A stretch of 64,000 bases of DNA from Bdellovibrionota bacterium (GTDB lineage Bacteria; Bdellovibrionota_C; UBA2361; CALJRW01), in contig JBGSMD010000039.1 of the NCBI GenBank assembly GCA_041740355.1, positions 1-64,000 of the forward strand. Reading direction: 5' to 3'. Positions 3,183 to 57,053 of this stretch are shown one piece after another (position 1 is the first letter of the stretch; each line of letters begins with the position of its first letter). Position numbers and translations under genes: made by a program. Under the pieces are notes generated by a model. That model saw only the letters and a program-made list of their open reading frames with translations. It had not been told where the DNA came from and searched no databases.

Positions 3183-3380
3183 TATACTCACCGCTTTTCA
3201 TTTTATGAAAAATGAAAAGCGGTGAGCGAGCAAAATCCTGTCGTAGACAGGTTTTGCCGTAGAAAATACTACCAAACCCTACGCAATTCGGCGATTAGTA
3301 TTGGTTTTTTCTTCTACAGCGTAACTTGGCCAAAGCCAAGTTAGGTGCGAACTACGCAAATTTCATCTGCGGAGGGTTTA
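3183..3380. mobile_element. MITE-like element family B copy 1
   Basis: TA-TACTCACCGC...GCGGAGGGTT-TA; reverse complement aligns with 5411-5613; several internal hairpins. Confidence 0.8.
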
Positions 3381-5410: not shown

Positions 5411-5613
5411 TAAACCCTCCGCAAATGATATTTGCAGAGGGCGAGCGTAGTCCTGTAGTAAACTAAGTTATGCCGGAAAAGACAAAACCAATACTCACCG
5501 CTCATTAGCGTAGAGTTTGGTAGTGTTTTCTAAGGCAAAACCTGTCCGTGACAAGATTTTGCTCGCTCACCTTACTTTTCATTTTTACTCAAAAATGAAA
5601 AGTGGTGAGTATA
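5411..5613. mobile_element. MITE-like element family B copy 2 (inverted relative to copy 1)
   Basis: TA-AACCCTCCGC...GGTGAGTA-TA; aligns with the reverse complement of 3183-3380. Confidence 0.8.
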
Positions 5614-25158: not shown

Positions 25159-26913
25159 TTAAAAACCAGTATCGACAGTAGCTCTTTCTCTACTAATAAC
25201 TTCAGTTCTTAAAAAAGAATTAAAGGATTGTGAAGCAGAGAAAAGGAAGCGGGGGTCATAAGCCTCTGTGCCATCTGGTCCATCTCTCATTGGAAAAGCG
25301 ACATCAAAACGGAGAACTCGGGAACCAGAGGAGCGGGGGAGTCCAATCCGTAGTCCAAATCCAACATCAGAGTAAACCTCATCCTGTATGGCAGTACTTA
25401 GTGAGTCAGTAGTTGAAGTACCAACGTCAATAAAAAAAACTGTTCCTAAACTAATTAATTTCCAAACATCCTCTTTCCAGTGAATTCGATCTTCTAAATT
25501 AATGGCAATCCGTTTATCTCCAGAAAAAGTTCTGGCGCTATAGCCACGTAAAAAGTTATCGGCGCCAAGTAAAAACTCACGGTCTCGATCAAGCTTTTGA
25601 GCATAGTCCATGGTGAAAGCAGCAGCTAAGGTATGATTTCCAAGTGATAAGCCACCAATTTTTTTATTACCTAAAAGATTATAATATCTGAGATCGCTGC
25701 GAATAATAGAATTTTCTAAAGTACCTTCTTCTTCCAAGTACCTAGTACCAACTCCAATCTCTCCACGAAGAAATGACTCTGGAGTGAATAGCCATCCTGT
25801 GCCAGTTGAGGCTGAGAAAAGTAGGGCATCTGCATCGGAACCTAAGGCTTCAGGGGCTAATTGGAACTTCATCGAAGATTGATTTCCAAGGTTATAATCA
25901 TCAAAACGATCGAAACGATCAATGTAGTTTTTGGAGATAAACTGAGGTTGAATGCTCTCAAAAGCAAAATATGGTCCAACAAAACGACGATCTTCCGGTA
26001 GTTCCACATCCTCTAAGGTAACTTCATCAAGATCTATTCCCAAATCATCATAATCATCGGCATCAGCATCACTGAAGTTATTTTCAAAATAGTTATATCC
26101 AAACGAGTACCTACGAGACTGTATTTCGGGTTGACCTTTAACAAAGGTATAAAAAATATCAAAGTCCGTATTCTTATCACGATAAACATATCGCTCTTCG
26201 TTGTTTCTAAAAAGTCTTTCGGCGGTATCACCATATAAGAAACTAACACCAAAGGACTTATCATCAAAAAGAGTTCGAAGAGGGCGCTCTAAGGAAATTT
26301 GATGGATATCACCATCGGATCTTTGAAATTGAGCTAATTCAAATTGATTCTCAGAACCAAAAAACCGACGATCATCATAAACAGTTTGAGTAGTTTTTCG
26401 GCCGTCATCATCTTCCACAAGAAATTCTAGCCGTTTACCTAGACCAAATAAATCACTCTCAGCCAGGCCAAAACTTTGCTTATTTCGGCCGTCGCCACTT
26501 GAATAACTAACTTGTGGAATCAAGGTCCAAGTATCTTGAACTTCTACATAAACATCGATTGTTTCGGCATCGATAATGATTGGCTTGATATCAACACGTC
26601 TAATAAAGTCTAAAGTTCTAATATTACGTGAAGATTCCCGAATGTGGAAATTAGTTATCTCCATACCAGGTTTAAATGTTAACTCACGAAGGATAACTGG
26701 ATCTTGGGTGGTATATTTCCAACCGTTAGCTTTGCGGTAAAGCCAACTTAAATCTTCTTCGGCCGGAAAAATATCTTTGACGTTTACATAGATCTGGCCA
26801 ATTTTACGGCCAGTTAATATTTTAGAATAATCTACTGCTTGAGCGGGATCATCTGCGGAGACTGCAGTAGCAACTAATATTAATAAAAGGAGGCAGAAAA
26901 ACCTAGAAAACAT
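25159..26913 (-). CDS. Omp85 (BamA/TamA-like) outer membrane protein
   Basis: Signal peptide, POTRA-like VILREL, LRGY loop-6 motif, GFGLR, terminal F. Confidence 0.8.
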   Translation of the reverse strand: MFSRFFCLLLLILVATAVSADDPAQAVDYSKILTGRKIGQIYVNVKDIFPAEEDLSWLYRKANGWKYTTQDPVILRELTFKPGMEITNFHIRESSRNIRTLDFIRRVDIKPIIIDAETIDVYVEVQDTWTLIPQVSYSSGDGRNKQSFGLAESDLFGLGKRLEFLVEDDDGRKTTQTVYDDRRFFGSENQFELAQFQRSDGDIHQISLERPLRTLFDDKSFGVSFLYGDTAERLFRNNEERYVYRDKNTDFDIFYTFVKGQPEIQSRRYSFGYNYFENNFSDADADDYDDLGIDLDEVTLEDVELPEDRRFVGPYFAFESIQPQFISKNYIDRFDRFDDYNLGNQSSMKFQLAPEALGSDADALLFSASTGTGWLFTPESFLRGEIGVGTRYLEEEGTLENSIIRSDLRYYNLLGNKKIGGLSLGNHTLAAAFTMDYAQKLDRDREFLLGADNFLRGYSARTFSGDKRIAINLEDRIHWKEDVWKLISLGTVFFIDVGTSTTDSLSTAIQDEVYSDVGFGLRIGLPRSSGSRVLRFDVAFPMRDGPDGTEAYDPRFLFSASQSFNSFLRTEVISRERATVDTGF

Positions 26914-27079
26914 TAAATTTTAGATGCTTTAAAATTAAATAAGATACAATTTCATACAATTATTGAAAAAGCTATCAATCGCATCGGCATTAAGTAACGG
27001 GATGATTAAATATAAGTAAAGGCTTGGTCAGATCAGTCGCCAAAGTTCCCGCCATTTACTAGACAAATAACAATTTAGC

Positions 27080-27116
27080 TTGCCCTGTGTGTCGTTTTTT
27101 GATAAAATGACACACA
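27080..27116 (+). promoter_or_regulatory. Putative leaderless sigma70 promoter overlapped by a 13-bp inverted repeat
   Basis: TTGCCC-17-TAAAAT-7-ATG; TGTGTGTCGTTTT/AAAATGACACACA. Confidence 0.55.
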
Positions 27117-28282
27117 TGGTAGCCAGAATCTTATTTGATAAAATCGCGAAATCGTCCAAAAGTGTCCTTTTACTTGGACCAAGACAAGTTGGTAAAAGTA
27201 CTTTATGCCAACAACTTAAACCAGATCTAACAATCAATCTATCTGACCAAGAGCAATTTAACAAACATCTACGAGATGTTAGCCTGATTAAACGTCTTGT
27301 ATCAGATTCCGAGAAAAAATTAATTGTAATTGATGAAATTCAACGACTACCTGAGATGTTAAATACAATTCAATTTTTAATTGATAATAATCCAGACAAA
27401 CGCTTCATACTAACTGGATCCAGTGCTAGAAAACTGAAGCGGGGAAATGCGAACCTGTTACCAGGGCGAGTACTTGTCATGAATCTATCTCCGTTAGTCT
27501 ACTGGGAAGTTGTTGAGAATTTTGATTTATTAAAAGCCTTAACTAGAGGAATGTTGCCAGAGATTTATTTAAAGAAAGATCTTGAGCAAGTTTTATACTC
27601 TTATACCAATACTTATTTGCGCGAAGAAATCCAAGCTGAGGCATTAACTAAGAACTTGGCGGCCTATAGCAGATTTTTAGATTTAGCTGCTGTTCAATCA
27701 GGTTTACAGATTAATTATACCAAACTAGCTTCCGATGCTGAAATCAACAAAGAAACCACTAGGCGCTATTTTTCAATCCTAGAAGATACATTAATTATAG
27801 AAAAAATTCCTAGTTATACCTCCGTTCAAAGTAAGCGTCGTGCTCAACAAAAAGAGAGATTTGTCTTTTTTGACTTGGGGGTGTGTAATGCAATTTTGCG
27901 AAGAGTTAATAATCACTTTTCTGATACTGAGTTAGGCAAGCTTTTTGAGCAGTGGTTTGCTCTACAGTGTATTTACTATAATAAGATGATGTTTTGTAAC
28001 TGGAGCATTACAAGTTTTAGAACTGATGCTGGAGATGAAGTAGATTTACTTATTGAAACGCAAGATCGAATAATCGCTATAGAAATTAAATACTCTCAAA
28101 TCTTAAGAGAAGAATCTACGAAAGGACTTAAATTCTTTTCCTCTGCCGCAAAAAGCTTTAATGCTAAGAAAAAAGTTGAAACATATATTGTTTACTTAGG
28201 AGCTGATAAACAAGTTTTTGCTGACGGTACAATTGCCGTTAATTACCAAGACTTTCTAATTAATATTGAGAATCTTGTTTAA
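27116..28282 (+). CDS. AAA_14 ATPase with DUF4143 domain
   Basis: GPRQVGKS, IDEIQ, LTGSS, FFDLG, EVD...IEIK PD-(D/E)xK tail; ATG 27116 preferred. Confidence 0.9.
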   Translation: MVARILFDKIAKSSKSVLLLGPRQVGKSTLCQQLKPDLTINLSDQEQFNKHLRDVSLIKRLVSDSEKKLIVIDEIQRLPEMLNTIQFLIDNNPDKRFILTGSSARKLKRGNANLLPGRVLVMNLSPLVYWEVVENFDLLKALTRGMLPEIYLKKDLEQVLYSYTNTYLREEIQAEALTKNLAAYSRFLDLAAVQSGLQINYTKLASDAEINKETTRRYFSILEDTLIIEKIPSYTSVQSKRRAQQKERFVFFDLGVCNAILRRVNNHFSDTELGKLFEQWFALQCIYYNKMMFCNWSITSFRTDAGDEVDLLIETQDRIIAIEIKYSQILREESTKGLKFFSSAAKSFNAKKKVETYIVYLGADKQVFADGTIAVNYQDFLINIENLV

Positions 28283-28313
28283 ATAAGCTACCTAGTATTT
28301 AACCACCCCTAAA

Positions 28314-28341
28314 GGTACATAGAATTATAGTACTATGTAAC
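28314..28341. other. Putative dif-like tyrosine recombinase site (11-6-11)
   Basis: GGTACATAGAA-TTATAG-TACTATGTAAC, arms 9/11 inverted; half-copies at 29174-29193 and 31757-31774. Confidence 0.6.
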
Positions 28342-28482
28342 TAGGGATAGGCATGATTAACCTACTCAATATAAACTTAACTAGCTTATCGGAACAAACC
28401 TTAATTTCAATTAAGAAATGATTGAGGTTTTTTACGCTAGTTAAATAGTTAAAGTTTATTATTACATTGTCGATATTGTTTT

Positions 28483-28923
28483 ATGAATTTCAGACAATCA
28501 GGATTTTCTCTAGTTGAACTTCTCGTTACAGTTGCGATTATTGGTATACTAGCGGCAATAAGCATTCTTCAATACGAGCAATTTAAAAACCGTGCCAACG
28601 ATTCCAATGCAATAAGCAACCTGAGAAATTCTATAGTAGCTCAAGAAGCTTACTACGTTGATCATCACACCTATGCCCACCCATCTTTTGGCAATGATTT
28701 ACAGCCATATGATACACCACACCCTCTCTCAGTTTATGGGTATGAGCCATTAGTTGGAATTTATTTTAAATATTCTGGAAATAATAATTTTTTTATAAGT
28801 GGATCACTTCACGAAAAAGGAACCCGCACATATTGCTACAGCAATCATCCATTTGCTAGCGTGGGTAAAGATGGCTTTTATGATAGGCCTCTAAATTATG
28901 ATTTTGATAGCGTCTGTGATTAA
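28483..28923 (+). CDS. Type IV pilin-like protein
   Basis: Class III signal QSG/FSLVELLVTVAIIGILAAI, C-terminal Cys pair. Confidence 0.88.
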   Translation: MNFRQSGFSLVELLVTVAIIGILAAISILQYEQFKNRANDSNAISNLRNSIVAQEAYYVDHHTYAHPSFGNDLQPYDTPHPLSVYGYEPLVGIYFKYSGNNNFFISGSLHEKGTRTYCYSNHPFASVGKDGFYDRPLNYDFDSVCD

Positions 28924-28931
28924 TCTGTTAA

Positions 28932-29173
28932 TTAATAGTCCAATTTAAGTCTAGGTTTGTCTTCGATATCCAGTCGTCGCTTATCATAGACATCAACCAT
29001 CTGAGTTGACGAATGCCTAGAAAACTTTTGGACAAACTTGTGATCAAAGCCATCAGTTAAAAGTTTAGTTATCGCGGTAGCTCTTGTGGAGTCCGTAGTT
29101 GCGTAATGACTAGCCCCTACCATTTGACAATAACTTTTGAAAAGTTTGTGCATACCACTTTCAGACAAAGCTT
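28932..29173 (-). pseudogene. Duplicated 3' fragment of the tyrosine recombinase gene
   Basis: Aligns with about 30588-30829; 89 bp identical core; PHSAR changed to TDSTR; no 5' part. Confidence 0.9.
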
Positions 29174-29193
29174 TTATAGTACTATGTAACTAG
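29174..29193. repeat. 20-bp direct repeat of spacer plus right arm of the dif-like site
   Basis: TTATAGTACTATGTAACTAG identical to 28325-28344. Confidence 0.9.
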
Positions 29194-30389
29194 AGATTGG
29201 AGTTATTAAAGGTCATCCGAAGCCCTTCGCTCCAAGGCATAACTTTTATCTGGCCAATTGAGTATGGTAATGGAGTATTACAAAAGCAAAGAGTCTGAAT
29301 TTCAGGAAATTCTTCCCTAATTAATTCTAGGGATCTTAGGTCCTCAATCTTAGGGGCACTTGATGACTTTATCTCTATGGCGTAGATCGGTGGTGCTGAT
29401 TTCTTTCGTGAAAGAACCAAATCTACTTCTGCCCCATTTAATGTTCTCCAATAACTCAATCTAAATCCATTATTTAAATAATCATTATATCTAATTGCTT
29501 CATTAATAATGAATGTCTCAAATAAATTACCATATCGAGTTGTTGCCTTTTTAAGCTCACTTCTTTCCTCTCCACAGATAGCATTCACTACCCCACAGTC
29601 AAAAAAATAAAACTTATTAGATTTAGTCAACTGCTTACGAACAGAGTAATCAAAAGCTGGAAGTAATGTTCCAACTAAAGTATCGGAGAGGATTTCAAAA
29701 TATTGCTTTACTGTTGTATCTGCTACTTTAATTTGCTTAGCGATACTGGAGTAGTTAATAATTTCAGAATTTTGCTGCCCAGCAACTTCTAAAAATTTAT
29801 AAAAGGCTGGAACATTTCTAGTTAATGCTTCTTGCTGAATCTCCTCTTTTAAGTATGTTTCCACATAACTAGTTAAAAATTCATGGCGTCTTTTCGGATT
29901 AAGATAAATCCTAGGAAGACATCCAAACTGCAAAGCTTTATCTAAATCAATTTCTAGTTCAAGTGAACAAAATGGATATAATCTTTTAGAAATAGCCCTG
30001 CCTGCTAATAGATTTACTCCACTTCTTTTAATCTTTCTTGCACTAGAACCGGTTAATAAAAAACTAACTTTTCCTTTAAATTTTTCAATCAGTAAATGAA
30101 TATAATCCAGTAGCTCGGGAAGTTTTTGAATTTCATCAACTAATACAATGCATGGGAACGACTTTGAGCTATTAATTTGCTCTTCAATATCCTTTTTAAA
30201 TTGACTAGGATCAGAATTATATCTTCTAAAAGTTTGAATATCCAAAAGAGAAATACTTACAGAAGACCCCTTGAAACCTTTTAGAATCTCCTCCGATAAA
30301 AATGTCTTACCAGTTCCACGCGGCCCTAATAATAAAATAGAATAACTATCTAATAAGATTGACTTTAGATCTAAAATTCTCTTTGCCAT
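29190..30389 (-). CDS. AAA_14 ATPase with DUF4143 domain
   Basis: GPRGTGKT, VDEIQ, LTGSS, YFFDCG, EVD...IEIK. Confidence 0.9.
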   Translation of the reverse strand: MAKRILDLKSILLDSYSILLLGPRGTGKTFLSEEILKGFKGSSVSISLLDIQTFRRYNSDPSQFKKDIEEQINSSKSFPCIVLVDEIQKLPELLDYIHLLIEKFKGKVSFLLTGSSARKIKRSGVNLLAGRAISKRLYPFCSLELEIDLDKALQFGCLPRIYLNPKRRHEFLTSYVETYLKEEIQQEALTRNVPAFYKFLEVAGQQNSEIINYSSIAKQIKVADTTVKQYFEILSDTLVGTLLPAFDYSVRKQLTKSNKFYFFDCGVVNAICGEERSELKKATTRYGNLFETFIINEAIRYNDYLNNGFRLSYWRTLNGAEVDLVLSRKKSAPPIYAIEIKSSSAPKIEDLRSLELIREEFPEIQTLCFCNTPLPYSIGQIKVMPWSEGLRMTFNNSNL

Positions 30390-30425
30390 ACACCGAATAT
30401 TAGCCTAATATTCGGTGTATGTACA
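30387..30425 (-). promoter_or_regulatory. Putative leaderless promoter with a perfect 17-bp palindrome covering the ATG
   Basis: CATACACCGAATATTAG-C-CTAATATTCGGTGTATG; minus strand TGTACA-17-TAATAT-7-ATG. Confidence 0.55.
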
Positions 30426-30587
30426 GAAATTTATCGCAAATTTGAGTTTTATTGGTAATTTCTCAAGCCTTCAACGTTTGATTGCCTAAACTACCCCCCC
30501 CCATTGGTAACATTATAATTTTATTGGCTATATTTATTCTTATGCAAGTAAAATCTAGGCATAGCTCCTAGGATTTACTGGTATAAA

Positions 30588-31631
30588 TTAATAATCAAGT
30601 TTCAGTCCTGGGTTATCCTCAATATCTAGTCGCCGCTTATCATAGACATCAACCATCTGAGTTGACGAATGCCTAGAAAACTTTTGGACAAACTTGTGAT
30701 CAAAGCCATCAGTTAAAAGTTTGGTAATCGCGGTAGCTCTTGCTGAGTGTGGCGTTGCATAATGGCTAGCACCTACCATTCGGCAATAACTTTTAAAAAG
30801 CTTGTGCATTCCGCTTTCAGAAAGTGCCTGCTCAGTTGAAATTGTACCGCCACGCCCCCGAAATCCCGTGAATAAAAAATCACCGGAAGCAGCTCCAAGT
30901 TCTTCTCTTGATTTAACCAAAGGCTCTAAATGTTCGACAGCCCAAGTTGGCAAAGGTTGATCGGCATCTTTGTTGCTTTTAGTCGCCCGTAACCGCAAGT
31001 AAACTATTCCCCCCTGAGATTTTCGAACATCACCTAAGCGTAAACTTAGAACTTCATTCTTTCGGAGCCCTGCGGAGAACATAATTGCCAGCAACGCTCG
31101 ATCCCGAATCCCCTTTGGCGTTTCAGGATCTGGCGCATTTACAATCTCTTTTACCAAATTAAAATCTATCATTTCTGTTGGTCTTTTCTGTCCAGATCGT
31201 GCTTTGGGCGCTTGGACTTTATCAGGATCAAACGGATTAGTTTTAATTCCCAAATCAGCACTAACTAACATGCGATACATTCTTCTTAGTGCAGCAACTT
31301 TCTTAGCGATTGTAGAATTAGCGAGGTTACTCTCCAGTCCACTTTTCTTGGTTTTCTTACTGGATGTATCAGACGAGTTTTTTTTGATTAGCCGAGGTTC
31401 ATGTCCGGCCTGTTTTCCCTGCCAATTGATGTAGCTGATTGCTTCTAAATCCGTCACTTCAAGTAATGCTGTTGCTCCTGACTCCGTATTTTTCTCTGCC
31501 TTTACAAAGTCACACCACTCATTAATAATCCCTGAATAAGTTTTCTGTGTATTAGGACTTTTAAGTGATAAAAAAGCTTCAATTCGAATCCAGACTTGGT
31601 TGGTTTTGATAGGAGTTTGCATAGGTAACAT
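30588..31631 (-). CDS. Xer-family tyrosine recombinase
   Basis: RDRALL..GLR (R), TK (K), PHSAR (HxxR), RHSS (H), VYD (Y); N-terminal SPNT..TY core-binding domain. Confidence 0.92.
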   Translation of the reverse strand: MLPMQTPIKTNQVWIRIEAFLSLKSPNTQKTYSGIINEWCDFVKAEKNTESGATALLEVTDLEAISYINWQGKQAGHEPRLIKKNSSDTSSKKTKKSGLESNLANSTIAKKVAALRRMYRMLVSADLGIKTNPFDPDKVQAPKARSGQKRPTEMIDFNLVKEIVNAPDPETPKGIRDRALLAIMFSAGLRKNEVLSLRLGDVRKSQGGIVYLRLRATKSNKDADQPLPTWAVEHLEPLVKSREELGAASGDFLFTGFRGRGGTISTEQALSESGMHKLFKSYCRMVGASHYATPHSARATAITKLLTDGFDHKFVQKFSRHSSTQMVDVYDKRRLDIEDNPGLKLDY

Positions 31632-31717
31632 TTCATCAAGTAACCCGTCCTAATTTTATTGAATATGGCATAATAGCAATGCTCAAAACTTACTTTTCAA
31701 TAAAATTTAGGACGTGG

Positions 31718-31774
31718 TTAGATTTAATAGTTAGTTGTTAAACTAACTATTAAATCTAATTCTATGTACTTTTA
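31718..31774. repeat. Perfect 19-bp inverted repeat abutting an inverted copy of the dif-like left arm
   Basis: TTAGATTTAATAGTTAGTT-GTTA-AACTAACTATTAAATCTAA; reverse complement of 31757-31774 matches 28310-28327 at 17/18. Confidence 0.85.
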
Positions 31775-31789
31775 ACATTTCAGCAAGAT

Positions 31790-32581
31790 ATGAATTTTAA
31801 CATCACAAACTATCAAGGAATTATCTTCGACTTAGATGGTGTGATCTATAGTGGTAATAGCCTAATTCCTGGTGCCAAAGAGCTTACTTCCTATTTACAA
31901 CGTGAGAGAATACCTTTTATCTTTCTAACTAATAATTCCTCCAAGTCCGTTGAGCAAATTTCAGAAAAACTGACTGCGCTTGGATTAAATAACATCAATA
32001 CTAATCAAGTACTAAGCAGTGCTGTCGCAGTTGGTCTTTGGCTTACTAAAAATATTTCTATTGACCAAAAGATATTTATCTATGGGATGAATGGTCTACG
32101 CGAACAAGTACTCAGCCTTGGCTATCAGCTTACTGAAGATCAAGATGCCGATCTTATCCTTGCTGGACTCAACATGGATATTACTTATGAAAAGTTAGCT
32201 CGAGCTAGTTTAGCAATCCAAAATGGTGCTCGTTTGGTAGCCTCAAATGCCGATCTTACCTATCCTACAGAAAGAGGACTGCTCCCCGGAGCAGGAAGTA
32301 CACTTAAAGCTTTGACTTCTGCTTCAGGAAAAGAACCAGAAGTTGTTCTAGGAAAACCAAGTAAAGAATTTTTTGCCTTAGCAGAAGATTTGCTACAGGT
32401 GACGCCTAGTAAAATTTTAATGATTGGGGATCGACTGGATACAGATATTTTGGGTGCCAAGCAAGCTGGTATGAATACCCTATTAGTATTAACTGGAGTG
32501 ACCAAAAAATCAGAATTAGCTAGTTCTGAAATTAGACCAGATTATATTCTTGAATCATTACTAAATATTGAGATCAAGTAA
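31790..32581 (+). CDS. HAD-IIA hydrolase (NagD family)
   Basis: FDLDG, LTNN, GKP, IGDRLDTDI, VLTG. Confidence 0.92.
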   Translation: MNFNITNYQGIIFDLDGVIYSGNSLIPGAKELTSYLQRERIPFIFLTNNSSKSVEQISEKLTALGLNNINTNQVLSSAVAVGLWLTKNISIDQKIFIYGMNGLREQVLSLGYQLTEDQDADLILAGLNMDITYEKLARASLAIQNGARLVASNADLTYPTERGLLPGAGSTLKALTSASGKEPEVVLGKPSKEFFALAEDLLQVTPSKILMIGDRLDTDILGAKQAGMNTLLVLTGVTKKSELASSEIRPDYILESLLNIEIK

Positions 32582-32592
32582 TTAATTCATGA

Positions 32593-33912
32593 CTAAAGTG
32601 AATTTAGGAAAAGTAATAAATCATCCCTTTCAGCTTTACTCAGATTTTTAAATAGTTGCTTAGAAAGCTCCGCTTCACCACCATGCCAAAGAATTGCTTC
32701 TTCAATTGATCGGGCACGTCCGTCATGAAGAAATACTGGATTTTTCAAAGAAGGAGAAATTTCTTGAAAATATCCTAAACCCCAAAGCGGACTAGTTCTC
32801 CACTCACTACCTAGAGCATCAAATTCAGCATGCTGATCGGCAAGCTCTGGTCCCATATCATGAAGTAACATGTCAGTGAATGGATGGATTACTTGATTTT
32901 GTAATTCGGGATCAACATGAGTGCCTGTAGTTACGGTCATAGTGTGACAACTGTCACAACCAACTGCTTTAAAATTTTCTTTTCCAAAAAGAACTCTAGT
33001 ATCACTTTGGTTTCTAGCGCGTGGTACACCACCTATTCTTTGATAGATTGCTAGGCGGAATAAGGCATCATCAGAAACTTCGATCTTTCCATCTCCCGGA
33101 AAGAGCGAATTTTGAACGCGCATATCACTAAAAAACGCTGCGGCAGATTGTTGCTCCACAGTTGTATGGGTAGCTTTAAAACCAAATTTACCAATCCCCT
33201 TAATTCCTTTTCGAACATCAGGAACATAATTAACTTTGCCTGAAATCCCATCCTGATTAAGATCAAAAGGATCGCTCATTGCTAGAATCGTATCATCTGA
33301 TATTGCCTCCATTAATCCCATTCCAATAACTGGTGGAGTCATCCGAAGTGAATGAACAATTCTGCGAGGAATCATTCCATTGATGAAAAATTTTAATCTA
33401 GGTTTTCTAAGTTGATAGCTTGTACCATCTGGATAGCTACCCTCAAGATACTTCCATCTTAATCTTATATTATGTATATTTGTTTTATTACCTAAGGAAT
33501 GATTTCTTAACTGTTCCCCCACCCCTGGAATATTCCTAGTGGATCCATCAGCATTAAGTTTTGGTCGGCTAACCTTAATTACCATTGTTGTTCGCCTATC
33601 CGGAGCAAACGAGCCAATTGGTCCTCTGCCATTATTTAGGTGGCACCCATTACAGGAAGAATTAATAAAAGTAGGTCCTAAGCCTAATTTTTTGTTAAAA
33701 TTGCCATGAAAAACTCCAAATCCACTTCCTTGTAATGTTCTTCTCTCTATAGTTTGTATATTTGGAGCACCAACTTGAATGGAGTTTTTACCAATTAAAT
33801 CTGATGTTAAATCACCTCCAATTGAAGTTAGATCTTGAGCTGTAGCCCTAAAAGAACAAAGTAATATACAGAAAAAAACGGTTCGTAGAACTAATTCTCT
33901 TTTATTATTCAA
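32593..33912 (-). CDS. Di-heme oxidoreductase (DHOR) family protein
   Basis: CNGCH and CDSCH heme motifs, GLGP, LHDGRAR, AILWHGGE. Confidence 0.88.
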   Translation of the reverse strand: MNNKRELVLRTVFFCILLCSFRATAQDLTSIGGDLTSDLIGKNSIQVGAPNIQTIERRTLQGSGFGVFHGNFNKKLGLGPTFINSSCNGCHLNNGRGPIGSFAPDRRTTMVIKVSRPKLNADGSTRNIPGVGEQLRNHSLGNKTNIHNIRLRWKYLEGSYPDGTSYQLRKPRLKFFINGMIPRRIVHSLRMTPPVIGMGLMEAISDDTILAMSDPFDLNQDGISGKVNYVPDVRKGIKGIGKFGFKATHTTVEQQSAAAFFSDMRVQNSLFPGDGKIEVSDDALFRLAIYQRIGGVPRARNQSDTRVLFGKENFKAVGCDSCHTMTVTTGTHVDPELQNQVIHPFTDMLLHDMGPELADQHAEFDALGSEWRTSPLWGLGYFQEISPSLKNPVFLHDGRARSIEEAILWHGGEAELSKQLFKNLSKAERDDLLLFLNSL

Positions 33913-33949
33913 TATTTAGCGAAATTAAAAAAACTGTCTAATGACATAA

Positions 33950-56136: not shown

Positions 56137-57053
56137 TGATGACTGGCAAACCACTGATAAGTGTCTTGAAGTCCGGAGGCTAAATCTAATTTTGGAGACC
56201 AGCCCAGTAATTCTTTAGCTCTTGTGGAGGTAATTACACTGCGTTCCTGATCCCCTGCTCTTTGAGGCCCATAACTGGCTGGAATATTAAAGTTACCAGC
56301 TTTTATAATTTGCTGGTAAAGTTCATTTACTGAAGTTTCAATTCCAGTGCCAATATTGAAAGTATTAGTTATCCGTTGCTCTATAACAGATTCAATTGCC
56401 GAAACAACATCTAAGACATTCACATAATCTCTAGTAAATTTACCTGTGCCATTTATTGTTGGAATTTCACCACTAAGTAACTTCTTCAAAAATATTGCTA
56501 CAACTCCAGCTTCACCATGAGGATTTTGTCGAGGTCCATAAACATTAGCTAAGCGCAAAACTGCATACTTGAGTCCATAAACTCTCTGCCAAAGTGCTAA
56601 GTATTGCTCCACCACTGCTTTTGACTGACCATAAACACTTGTTGGTCGTAAAGCATGATCTTCTGGTGCAGGAAAAACATCTTGTTCTCCATATAGAGCA
56701 CCACCAGTGGAAATAAAAACAAAGAAAGGAAAATTATGTTTATCTAAGGCATTCAGTAAGTTTACAGTACCTTGCACATTGACTTTCACATCATGCAAAG
56801 GATCTTTCATGCTATCACTTACGGACATCTGAGCAGCTGTGTGAATAATAATATCTGGCTTAAAATACTTTATGGTATGAGCCGCTTCGGCATCGCAAAT
56901 ATCTTGTTGGAAAAACTGTGCCCGATCAGACAAATTATCAAGTGACCCGCTAGACAGATCGTCAATCACTGCAACTTCAAAGTTTTTTGCAACTAAACGA
57001 TCCACTACATGCGAACCAATAAACCCTGCTCCTCCAGTAACTAATGCTCTCAT
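56133..57053 (-). CDS. UDP-glucose 4-epimerase-like SDR
   Basis: [35 protein letters not shown]. Confidence 0.88.
   Translation of the reverse strand: MRALVTGGAGFIGSHVVDRLVAKNFEVAVIDDLSSGSLDNLSDRAQFFQQDICDAEAAHTIKYFKPDIIIHTAAQMSVSDSMKDPLHDVKVNVQGTVNLLNALDKHNFPFFVFISTGGALYGEQDVFPAPEDHALRPTSVYGQSKAVVEQYLALWQRVYGLKYAVLRLANVYGPRQNPHGEAGVVAIFLKKLLSGEIPTINGTGKFTRDYVNVLDVVSAIESVIEQRITNTFNIGTGIETSVNELYQQIIKAGNFNIPASYGPQRAGDQERSVITSTRAKELLGWSPKLDLASGLQDTYQWFASHQ

Follow-up and report, generated by a model that had tools for sequence, protein, structure and literature searches.

A dif-like site accompanying an Xer-like tyrosine recombinase gene in an uncultured bacterial order: a candidate module for chromosome-dimer resolution

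The window, meaning the whole 64,000-nt stretch analysed here (contig C39, JBGSMD010000039.1, of a 3.27-Mb Bdellovibrionota assembly), carries a tyrosine recombinase gene, a dif-like site and several accessory genes (Table 1). On the forward strand, positions 28314-28341 read GGTACATAGAA-TTATAG-TACTATGTAAC, with two 11-nt arms complementary at 9 of 11 positions around a 6-nt spacer, exactly as a sequence-only reading of this DNA had described. On the recombinase strand the 28-mer is GTTACATAGTA-CTATAA-TTCTATGTACC, flanked by CCCTAG and TTTAGGGG. It is present once in the assembly when up to three mismatches are allowed, which settles the question of uniqueness raised by that reading.

Table 1. 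Coordinates and strands of the features at the locus (window positions)
Feature	Position	Strand	Remarks
AAA_14-DUF4143 ATPase gene 1	27080..28282	+	inserted 31 nt left of the site; not in the locus of sister species G001
Conserved site region, 46 nt	28306..28351	-	28-mer core at 28314-28341
Type IV pilin-like gene, 146 aa	28483..28923	+	N_methyl motif, 34.9 bits; TIGR02532; not at the G001 locus
Dead recombinase-gene 3' fragment, last 80 codons	28932..29173	-	Pfam Phage_integrase, 32.6 bits
Partial site copy (spacer, one arm and CTAG)	29174..29209	-	exact over 29174-29193; 86% over 36 nt
AAA_14-DUF4143 ATPase gene 2	29190..30389	-	partial site on one side, recombinase gene on the other; not in the G001 locus
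Perfect 17-1-17 palindrome (I13)	30387..30421	.	spans the start codon of AAA gene 2
Tyrosine recombinase, 347 aa	30588..31631	-	Phage_integrase, 90.9 bits; Xer-like
Perfect 19-4-19 palindrome (I7)	31718..31759	.	abuts the arm copy; absent from G001
Arm copy, 17/18	31757..31774	-	126 nt upstream of the recombinase start

By itself, the palindrome is not unusual. The window holds 23 sites of 11-6-11 layout with at least 9 of 11 complementary arm positions, against a mean of 18.6 (range 12-26) expected from 30 Markov-1 simulations of the window, so the case for its reality comes from the comparison of genomes and not from the palindrome count. In the sister species G001, a 46-nt block containing the site is identical at 45 positions, with neighbouring genes at 74-82% identity. 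The G001 site lies 100 nt beyond the recombinase stop codon, with a 584-aa gene about 100 nt away; the 28-mer had been expected next to orthologous recombinases, and here it was found. This conservation and an exact 20-nt repeat of part of the site are far beyond chance. A pattern built from the window arms recovered the same-genus copies and one further contig, C60, the remaining matches occurring at the control rate. No Rfam family matched the element, and a hairpin-RNA reading was dropped when RNAalifold gave no consensus structure.

The 347-aa recombinase scores below every curated Xer cut-off: 88.3 bits against 329.6 on the XerD model TIGR02225, so that it does not qualify as a canonical XerD, 79.1 against 335.15 on TIGR02224 (XerC), 51.3 against 267 on NF003462 (XerS), 74.5 against 220 on NF040815 (XerA) and 31.9 against 265 on TIGR02249 (integron integrase). 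The catalytic set (R190, K218, H295, R298, H321 and Y330) is complete and invariant in 20 aligned orthologues. In a PDB sequence search, the closest solved structure was E. coli XerD (E 6e-12), and XerH chains gave no match at E<=0.001. The protein is single-copy in 36 of 41 relatives from 21 families, with 45-57% identity outside the genus and 95% in G001. Of the 91 order genomes, 77 carry it as a single copy; outside the order, it was found in 3 of 33. It is also kept in reduced genomes of 1.5-2.3 Mb. This distribution points to vertical inheritance in single copy. Neither the 20-mer nor the recombinase protein had a match in metagenome scans.

Within-genus comparison, the only level at which it emerged, revealed a family of sites with an 11-6-11 layout and the core AGAA-CTAGAA-AACT. 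At E<=0.001, the site model R1 matches 57 of the 91 order genomes, 56 of these 57 having a single copy, and none of the 33 from outside it. The exact 14-nt core is present in 15 of 41 genomes, always as a single copy. When the register was tested on 38 distinct elements, 55.7% of cells were complementary in the 11-6-11 arrangement; in six registers slid away from it, the share was 22-33.5%. Changes on both sides were seen in 7 of the 11 pairs. Some properties fit the main reading less well. Conservation in the family peaks in the central 6 bp, opposite to what the excerpted text of PMC2731167 describes for classical dif. The window 28-mer is the best R1 match in the 64-kb window on both strands (minus strand, full length), yet it scores weakly, at 11.8 bits (E 0.73); other family members share its spacer CTATAA and inner arm TTCT. 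Under standard filters, R1 had no match in family f1. Crude palindrome scans of orthologue flanks showed nothing shared, their output being swamped by runs of N.

The site family also follows the recombinase gene. The two share a contig in 42 of the 57 genomes with an R1 match, and tabulation of these matches against recombinase positions places the site upstream of the gene and on its strand in all 42. The gap is at most 250 nt in 23 cases; 9 cases have 0.5-1.1 kb, and the remaining 10 have 1.7-12 kb. In the other 15 genomes, the site is on another contig or the recombinase gene was not found. One match near the recombinase gene of G002, which falls inside an ORF, was rejected; a better site exists on another contig of that genome. 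An R1 match is found in 56 of the 77 order genomes with a window-type recombinase, compared with 1 of the 14 without. The pairing of site and recombinase as a module, put forward from the window sequence, is thus borne out by G001 and by the order-wide family. The genus of the window departs from the pattern, with the site downstream of the gene, unlike the 42 upstream cases, which tells against the main reading. On this comparison, the 28-mer would be the genus-specific form of an order-wide single-copy site that accompanies the window-type recombinase.

A trace of the upstream arrangement may be left in the window. The stretch 28310-28327 recurs inverted, with 17 of 18 identities (pair I11), at 31757-31774, as had been reported, and the 18-mer is found only in these two places of the assembly at up to one mismatch. 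The position and orientation of the copy match those of the full site elsewhere in the order, and G001 partly keeps it, with one more substitution. It is probably a relic of an ancestral upstream site or an operator, the former being the most likely. Both partial copies had been described as half-sites broken at the border of arm and spacer; this holds for the one at 29174, but the copy at 31757 includes 3 spacer bases.

The repeat of 28325-28344 at 29174-29193 is exact over 20 nt and begins with the first spacer base, in agreement with the earlier description. Similarity extends to 36 nt at 86% (family D2), and this 20-mer of spacer and arm has only two copies in the assembly at up to three mismatches. 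The partial copy and the second AAA gene overlap at the stop codon of the latter, and the junction of the copy is spanned without differences by contigs from two further sequencing runs. A direct repeat of 236 nt (D1; 28930-29165 and 30586-30821, 88% identity) had been missed; it is a duplication of the recombinase gene's 3' end and terminates at the partial site. The dead fragment there is identical to the resident gene at 209 of 242 nt and to the G001 gene at 189 of 242, carries Asp where the H-x-x-R motif has its conserved His, and runs up to the partial copy.

The full and partial sites, in direct order, bracket an 849-bp insert that contains the pilin gene and the dead fragment, with the 20-nt repeat around it. 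A candidate Xer-exploiting element (IMEX), the insert has no replication or transfer genes and no recognisable mobile-element genes. We infer that a past recombination at the border of spacer and arm left this arrangement behind. An excised form, an empty site or a joint skipping the insert was not seen among contigs of three runs labelled as hot-springs metagenome, contigs being prone to lose rare variants. Loose contig ends in these runs fall at 28087, 28761, 28794 and 29932; the sole joint listed (26348 to 33946) was distrusted, one of its sides comprising just 25 letters. The proposal that the interval collects cargo holds for this genome in comparison with G001, but not for the relatives, where the genes scanned between site and recombinase are mostly ordinary metabolic ones.

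A third copy, full and site-like, was overlooked by the sequence-only reading. It lies on contig C60, is identical at 26 of 30 positions and shares additional flank, and C60 is joined to C58, a T4SS contig, as a fragment of a conjugative element. The 20-nt repeat around the insert and this mimic together suggest that mobile or foreign DNA also uses the site.

In several relatives, the site lies near a change in GC skew, the probable replication terminus. In G020, it lies at 66.6 kb, with the cumulative skew maximum at 70.7 kb and a gene-strand flip at 60-70 kb; in G028, it lies at 55.7 kb, with the maximum at 61 kb, where the contig ends. The candidate site of G009 is 29 kb from the skew maximum. 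In the closed genome, with dnaA at 864,980 of 2,283,970, the site at 1,831,703 coincides with the first flip of both GC skew and gene-strand bias. Other distances tell against the main reading: the global cumulative skew maximum of the closed genome is 115 kb from the site, and that of G021 is 40 kb away. The contig of the window is also unfavourable, its GC skew showing no sign change across the 28 kb that lie to the left. A strand classifier built on hexamers, correct for 309 of 336 held-out windows, assigns 15-30 kb of this contig the same polarity as the right side, and a flip near 20-30 kb appears in gene-strand bias only. Leftward extension failed because the left end of C39 overlaps several contigs through a common 132-140-nt repeat, and an 8-mer polar-motif search gave a single usable word. 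The suggested coincidence with a GC-skew switch has support from relatives; on the contig itself, no such switch was seen within 28 kb to the left.

The recombinase had been called a lone one, a claim that does not survive. The assembly (G000) has four further tyrosine-recombinase loci, consisting of a second Xer-like gene, an integron integrase and phage-type integrases; a single Xer-type recombinase is found in some relatives (family f8, closed genome). The second Xer-like protein (331 aa, G000:C16:9713-10705) is class-wide, occurring in 106 of the 124 genomes of the phylum sample. It outscores the window recombinase on the XerD model (125 against 88 bits), which counts against the main reading, and it matched XerH chains at E<=0.001 in the PDB sequence search. 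The XerD cut-off was reached in 0 of the 124 genomes. No conserved motif was found flanking the second gene. This protein could be the real dimer resolvase or a joint one. The genome also encodes an FtsK with a gamma domain.

Comparison with known systems places the module among gene-linked dif/Xer systems, to which it is a probable addition. XerS/difSL of streptococci and lactococci, as outlined in the excerpted text of PMC5357621, combines one recombinase gene beside its site, a terminus location and an FtsK-type translocase. The present locus resembles it in the linkage of an Xer-like gene to a dif-like site and in the encoded FtsK, and differs in the NF003462 score given above, in a central region of 6 bp instead of 11, and in the second conserved Xer-like recombinase. 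XerH/difH of Helicobacter and Campylobacter is also a single-recombinase system, with difH 16-1981 bp from xerH according to the table of PMC2731167; here, XerH chains do not match the window protein at E<=0.001 and the arm sequences are unrelated. The 11-6-11 layout and the best solved relative recall the classical dif of XerC/XerD, whereas the failure of all 124 genomes of the phylum sample to reach the XerD cut-off, the linkage of gene and site and the highly conserved central region do not.

A parallel to the insert comes from Legionellales, where, in the extracts of PMC9765430, the lineage-specific single recombinase XerL acts with a dif whose distance from the skew inflection ranges from 89 bp to 79 kb. 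The element LME-1 carries a partial dif (22 of 29 bp), and its integration leaves one intact and one modified site (PMC9765430, same extracts). Judged by description, the full site and the 20-of-28 copy around the insert, together with the conjugative-element mimic, are alike, although the insert has just 849 bp and no recognisable mobile-element genes; the linkage of the site to the recombinase gene in the present system may be a further difference from XerL/dif. The gonococcal genetic island, a T4SS-bearing element whose degenerate dif keeps one arm and the central region (PMC5357621, excerpted text), parallels the partial copy at 29174 and the C58-C60 element.

Overall, the site and the 347-aa recombinase are fairly likely to form a dif/Xer-type chromosome-dimer-resolution module of the gene-linked kind, located in the terminus region, and the lineage site is probably where joined sister chromosomes are separated. 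Recombinase monomers would bind both arms, and the two sites of a dimeric chromosome would be brought together at the septum, probably by the encoded FtsK. Tyr330 would cleave where each arm meets the spacer, at points 6 bp apart, and the chromosomes would be separated after two strand exchanges.

A system of two recombinases, in which the window-type and the 331-aa proteins take one arm each as XerC and XerD do, is unlikely but has points in its favour. Both proteins are conserved and single-copy (36 and 33 of the 41 relatives), the arms are unlike in most sites (dyad symmetry of 2-6 of 11 in 18 of the 28 listed family rows), and R1 matches are commoner with the second protein (55 of 77 order genomes, against 2 of 14 without it), a count that runs against the main reading. 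However, the site family is missing from all 33 genomes outside the order, yet 29 of them have the second protein, and an R1 match occurs in just 1 of 10 order genomes with the second protein and without the window type. The closed genome (G081, the same as G041) and G022 retain site and window-type gene without the second protein, and their sites (row L116 for the closed genome) are asymmetric even so. G009 yielded one tyrosine-recombinase candidate in one search, and 1 to 5 across four. The lack of a conserved motif beside the second gene argues in the same direction.

It is quite improbable that the pair represents an integrase, since domesticated, and its attachment site, or the locus a gene-capture hotspot, with an incidental proximity to the terminus and no part in dimer resolution. 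Accessory genes take up the 2.2 kb that separate site and gene and a further 1.25 kb on the opposite flank, and all of them are missing in the sister species; the second copy of the recombinase 3' end hints at movement of whole modules, a conjugative element carries a site mimic, and the second Xer-like protein is available for dimer resolution. Against this stand the single site in 56 of 57 genomes, the recombinase-gene flanks, which vary from one related locus to another where read, the mostly metabolic genes that intervene where scanned, the terminus proximity in several independent genomes, and the retention of the gene in reduced genomes. Still more remote, to the point of being very hard to credit, is the idea that the conserved sequence serves the recombinase gene merely as an operator or promoter element, or that the window pattern arose by chance. 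Such palindromes are common by chance in an AT-rich window, and 23 of the 42 same-contig sites lie within 250 nt upstream of the start. But the other 19 lie 0.5-12 kb off, with other genes between, often on the opposite strand; 15 of 57 genomes have the site elsewhere or no recombinase gene found, the window genus has its site downstream, and neither the exact repeat nor the 45/46 block is compatible with chance.

More tentatively, the order may harbour two independent Xer-like systems that are being reciprocally lost in different families, which would be a replacement of dimer resolution in progress. The old system would be the ancestral class-wide recombinase, with no linked site, and the new one an order-specific recombinase paired with a terminus site of its own. 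There are families with the new one alone and families with the old one alone, and one family shows neither. Were this true, the new module may have arrived as a mobile unit of site plus gene. The order includes genomes with both Xer-like recombinases, with either one alone and with none, a natural comparison that could test how dimer-resolution systems get replaced.

If the dimer-resolution reading is correct, the module would be another lineage-specific, gene-linked dif/Xer system after XerS, XerH, XerA and XerL, and would allow the replication terminus to be located in draft genomes from this uncultured order. The partial copy and the conjugative-element mimic suggest that here, too, the site is exploited by mobile DNA.

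The 347-aa tyrosine recombinase of the window (the window-type protein) is encoded in single copy in 36 of 41 relatives from 21 families, with 45–57% identity outside the genus. Within the order 77 of 91 genomes have it, against 3 of 33 in the rest of the phylum sample, and it is vertically inherited. The catalytic residues R190, K218, H295, R298, H321 and Y330 are unchanged across 20 orthologues. At the sequence level the protein is classed as Xer-like, outside every curated family: it scored 88.3 bits with the XerD model (cut-off 329.6), 79.1 with XerC (335), 51.3 with XerS (267) and 74.5 with XerA (220). The closest solved relative is E. coli XerD (E 6e-12), and none of the 124 genomes of the phylum sample reached the XerD cut-off. 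Two genomes, G008 (contigs C199, C229) and G100 (C137, C149), carry two recombinase copies and/or two site matches; in G008, one site match adjoins the second gene copy.

A site family accompanies this gene in the order. Comparison of two species of one genus revealed a 45-nt non-coding block upstream of the gene, 91% identical and containing a near-perfect palindrome, and the core AGAA-CTAGAA-AACT precedes the gene at many loci, on the gene's strand every time. In its exact form the 14-nt core has a single occurrence in 15 of 41 genomes, and no genome has two. Among 38 distinct elements, 55.7% of cells are complementary in the 11-6-11 register, against 22–33.5% in six slid registers, and 7 of the 11 arm pairs are altered on both sides; arm symmetry spans 11/11 (G021) to 2/11 (G003). 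R1, a covariance model built on the family, matched 57 of the 91 order genomes (E<=0.001), with a single match in 56, and 0 of 33 genomes outside the order at the same threshold. Matches were found in 56 of the 77 order genomes with the recombinase vs. 1 of the 14 without it. Site and gene share a contig in 42 of the 57, the site being upstream on the same strand in all 42 tabulated cases, with gaps of <=250 nt in 23, 0.5–1.1 kb in 9 and 1.7–12 kb in 10. No Rfam family matches the element, and RNAalifold gave no consensus fold for it.

Sequence comparison places the window site in this order-wide family weakly but consistently. The best R1 match in the 64 kb, with both strands searched and filters off, covers it (11.8 bits, E 0.73) on the recombinase strand, at full length and in register; the site of the sister species, G001, scores 11.7 bits. 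Read on that strand as GTTACATAGTA-CTATAA-TTCTATGTACC, the site has a spacer also found in G022, G032 and G033, and an inner arm, TTCT, also found in G006, G019, G021, G032 and G002, the last from the same family as the window genome. The window's genus is unusual in two ways: its full site is downstream of the gene, and at the position of the site in other genomes, 126 nt upstream of the start, only the arm copy remains, which may be a relic or a retained operator. The sequence-only reading had made its module depend on a motif conserved beside orthologous recombinases, and such conservation was observed, both in the family linkage of the 42 same-contig cases and in G001, where 45 of the 46 nt around the site next to the gene are identical, against 74–82% in the flanking genes.

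The 28-mer, the 20-nt exact repeat and the inverted arm copy described in that reading were all re-found. A palindrome of 11-6-11 form is by itself ordinary in the window (23 with >=9/11 pairing, against a mean of 18.6 in 30 Markov-1 simulations); the repeats are unusual. Uniqueness of the full site, proposed as a check, was confirmed across the assembly (3.27 Mb, 74 contigs), with one occurrence of the 28-mer at <=3 mismatches. The spacer-plus-arm 20-mer has two copies only (28325-28344 and 29174-29193; <=3 mismatches) and the arm-plus-flank 18-mer two places only (<=1 mismatch). A third site-like copy, on contig C60, had been overlooked.

Coordinates of features in the window and on other contigs of the source assembly (G000)
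Feature	Position	Strand	Description
Palindrome pair	3193-3220; 5575-5602		Perfect 11-6-11, 2.4 kb apart; arms nearly alike (CTTTTCATTT / AAATGAAAAG)
584-aa ORF	25159-26913	-	Kept in sister species; no Pfam family
AAA_14-DUF4143 gene 1	27080-28282	+	
Best R1 match	28291-28358	-	
Full site	28314-28341		GGTACATAGAA-TTATAG-TACTATGTAAC, 11-6-11 form
Pilin gene	28483-28923	+	
Direct repeat	28930-29165; 30586-30821		236 nt at 88%
Dead 3' fragment	28932-29173	-	
Partial copy	29174-29209	-	Exact repeat of spacer, right arm and CTAG (29174-29193); similarity extends to 36 nt at 86%
AAA_14-DUF4143 gene 2	29190-30389	-	
17-1-17 palindrome	30387-30421		Perfect, over start codon of AAA_14-DUF4143 gene 2; could serve translation occlusion or as operator
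Window-type recombinase gene	30588-31631	-	
Arm copy	31757-31774	-	Inverted repeat of left arm with flank, 17/18
Third-best R1 match	56285-56321	-	10.5 bits, E 1.7; arms CTTTACCAG / CTGGTAA, longer centre; possibly chance
Third site-like copy	C60:1428-1457		26/30 identical; CCCCTAAAGG flank common to both
C16-type gene (L127)	C16:9713-10705		331-aa Xer-like protein
Integron integrase (L004)	C13:94854-95723		TIGR02249, 294.7 bits on part scanned

In G001, whose recombinase is 95% identical, the site lies between the 584-aa gene, about 100 nt away, and the recombinase stop codon, 100 nt away on the other side. This locus lacks the pilin gene, the two AAA_14-DUF4143 genes and the recombinase fragment, which indicates insertions in the window of 2.2 kb between site and gene and of 1.25 kb to the left of the site. 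G001 partly retains the upstream arm copy, with one further substitution, and lacks the 19-4-19 palindrome next to that copy.

The 236-nt direct repeat, also overlooked at first, is a dead duplicate of the 3' end of the recombinase gene (last 80 codons). The fragment is identical to the resident gene at 209 of 242 nt and to the sister species at 189 of 242, has Asp for the His of H-x-x-R, and its homology reaches 29173, abutting the partial copy. Other DNA may have used the site: full site and partial copy, in direct order, flank 849 bp with the pilin gene and this dead end. Where spacer and arm meet, the identity of the partial copy breaks off, and a 2-nt microhomology is possible there. Judging from its sequence, the segment may have originated by integration of a circle or by trimming of a tandem module. 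The arrangement resembles that of LME-1, whose att (22 of 29 bp) produces an intact dif and an altered one (PMC9765430), and that of the gonococcal island, which retains one arm and the central region (PMC5357621). No empty form was found among the contigs of three coded runs, where the junction is kept. Contigs of runs X1 and X2 diverge at 28087, 28761, 28794 and 29932 (AAA gene 1, pilin gene and AAA gene 2), suggesting strain variation around the site. Shared 110–141-nt repeats are common at contig ends of the assembly, such as the left end of C39, the window's contig, with 150 end overlaps detected, and the assembly is broken at this dispersed repeat.

C60 joins C58 through a unique 89-nt overlap, and together (loci L133, L227) they form a ~12-kb fragment of a conjugative element encoding VirB9-, VirB10- and VirB11-like proteins, a TraF-type peptidase, a coupling protein, AbiEii, HEPN, DUF6994 and an HNH protein. 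The C60 site mimic and an extra arm copy sit between AbiEii and HEPN. The proposal that the interval beside the site collects cargo holds for the window, whose pilin and AAA genes are absent in G001, but not for relatives, where most genes in the interval are ordinary (such as E1 dehydrogenase, adenosine deaminase and phosphatases), so that cargo capture does not characterize the module in general.

Coincidence with the GC-skew switch, a check proposed in the sequence-only reading, was found in relatives only. In G020 (233-kb contig), the site is at 66.6 kb and the cumulative skew maximum at 70.7 kb, and the plus-strand gene fraction drops from 0.88–1.0 to 0–0.33 over 60–80 kb; in G028, they lie at 55.7 and 61 kb, with the contig end at 63 kb. 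The candidate site of G009 is 29 kb from a sharp switch; a XerD-model search of that genome gave one tyrosine-recombinase candidate, of window type, and other searches 1 to 5. In G021, the skew reaches zero at the site, with the maximum 40 kb beyond. In a closed genome (2,283,970 bp; dnaA at 864,980), the site (1,831,703) is at the first flip of GC skew and gene-strand bias, 115 kb from the global maximum (1,946,546), which is displaced by an opposite-polarity block at ~1,854–1,918 kb. As a benchmark, PMC9765430 puts the distance of Legionella dif sites from the skew inflection at 89 bp to 79 kb. The window's own contig extends 28 kb left of the site, where GC skew is weaker and of the same sign; a hexamer classifier (309/336 held-out windows correct) assigns 15–30 kb to the polarity of the right side, and gene-strand bias alone flips, at 20–30 kb.

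The description of the recombinase as lone did not survive a search of the genome, in which Pfam Phage_integrase has six matches: the window gene, its dead 3' fragment, the C13 integron integrase, phage-type proteins on C19 and C52, and the C16-type protein. The C16-type protein is encoded in single copy in 33 of 41 relatives and in 106 of the 124 phylum-sample genomes, 29 of these being among the 33 outside the order, and outscores the window type on the XerD model (115–135 bits). The flanks of its gene hold no conserved motif, and the site family is absent where this protein alone is present, with matches in none of the 33 genomes outside the order and in one of 10 within it. The two genes have been lost in different families: the window-type gene is kept and the C16-type missing in the closed genome, in family f8 and in G022, and in family f3, with neither protein, no site was found. 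The two proteins could nonetheless conceivably act jointly on the site, since R1 matches are commoner where the C16-type is present (55/77 vs. 2/14 where absent).

No description of this site and recombinase family was found in the literature on Bdellovibrio dif/XerD, single-recombinase Xer systems or Bdellovibrionota tyrosine recombinases. Site architecture, copy number, gene linkage, recombinase co-occurrence, intact catalytic residues and, in relatives, terminus proximity were observed, and the genome encodes an FtsK that has a gamma domain. In the proposed mechanism, the window-type protein would bind both arms and cleave at the arm/spacer borders, FtsK would activate it, and the outcome would be dimer resolution.
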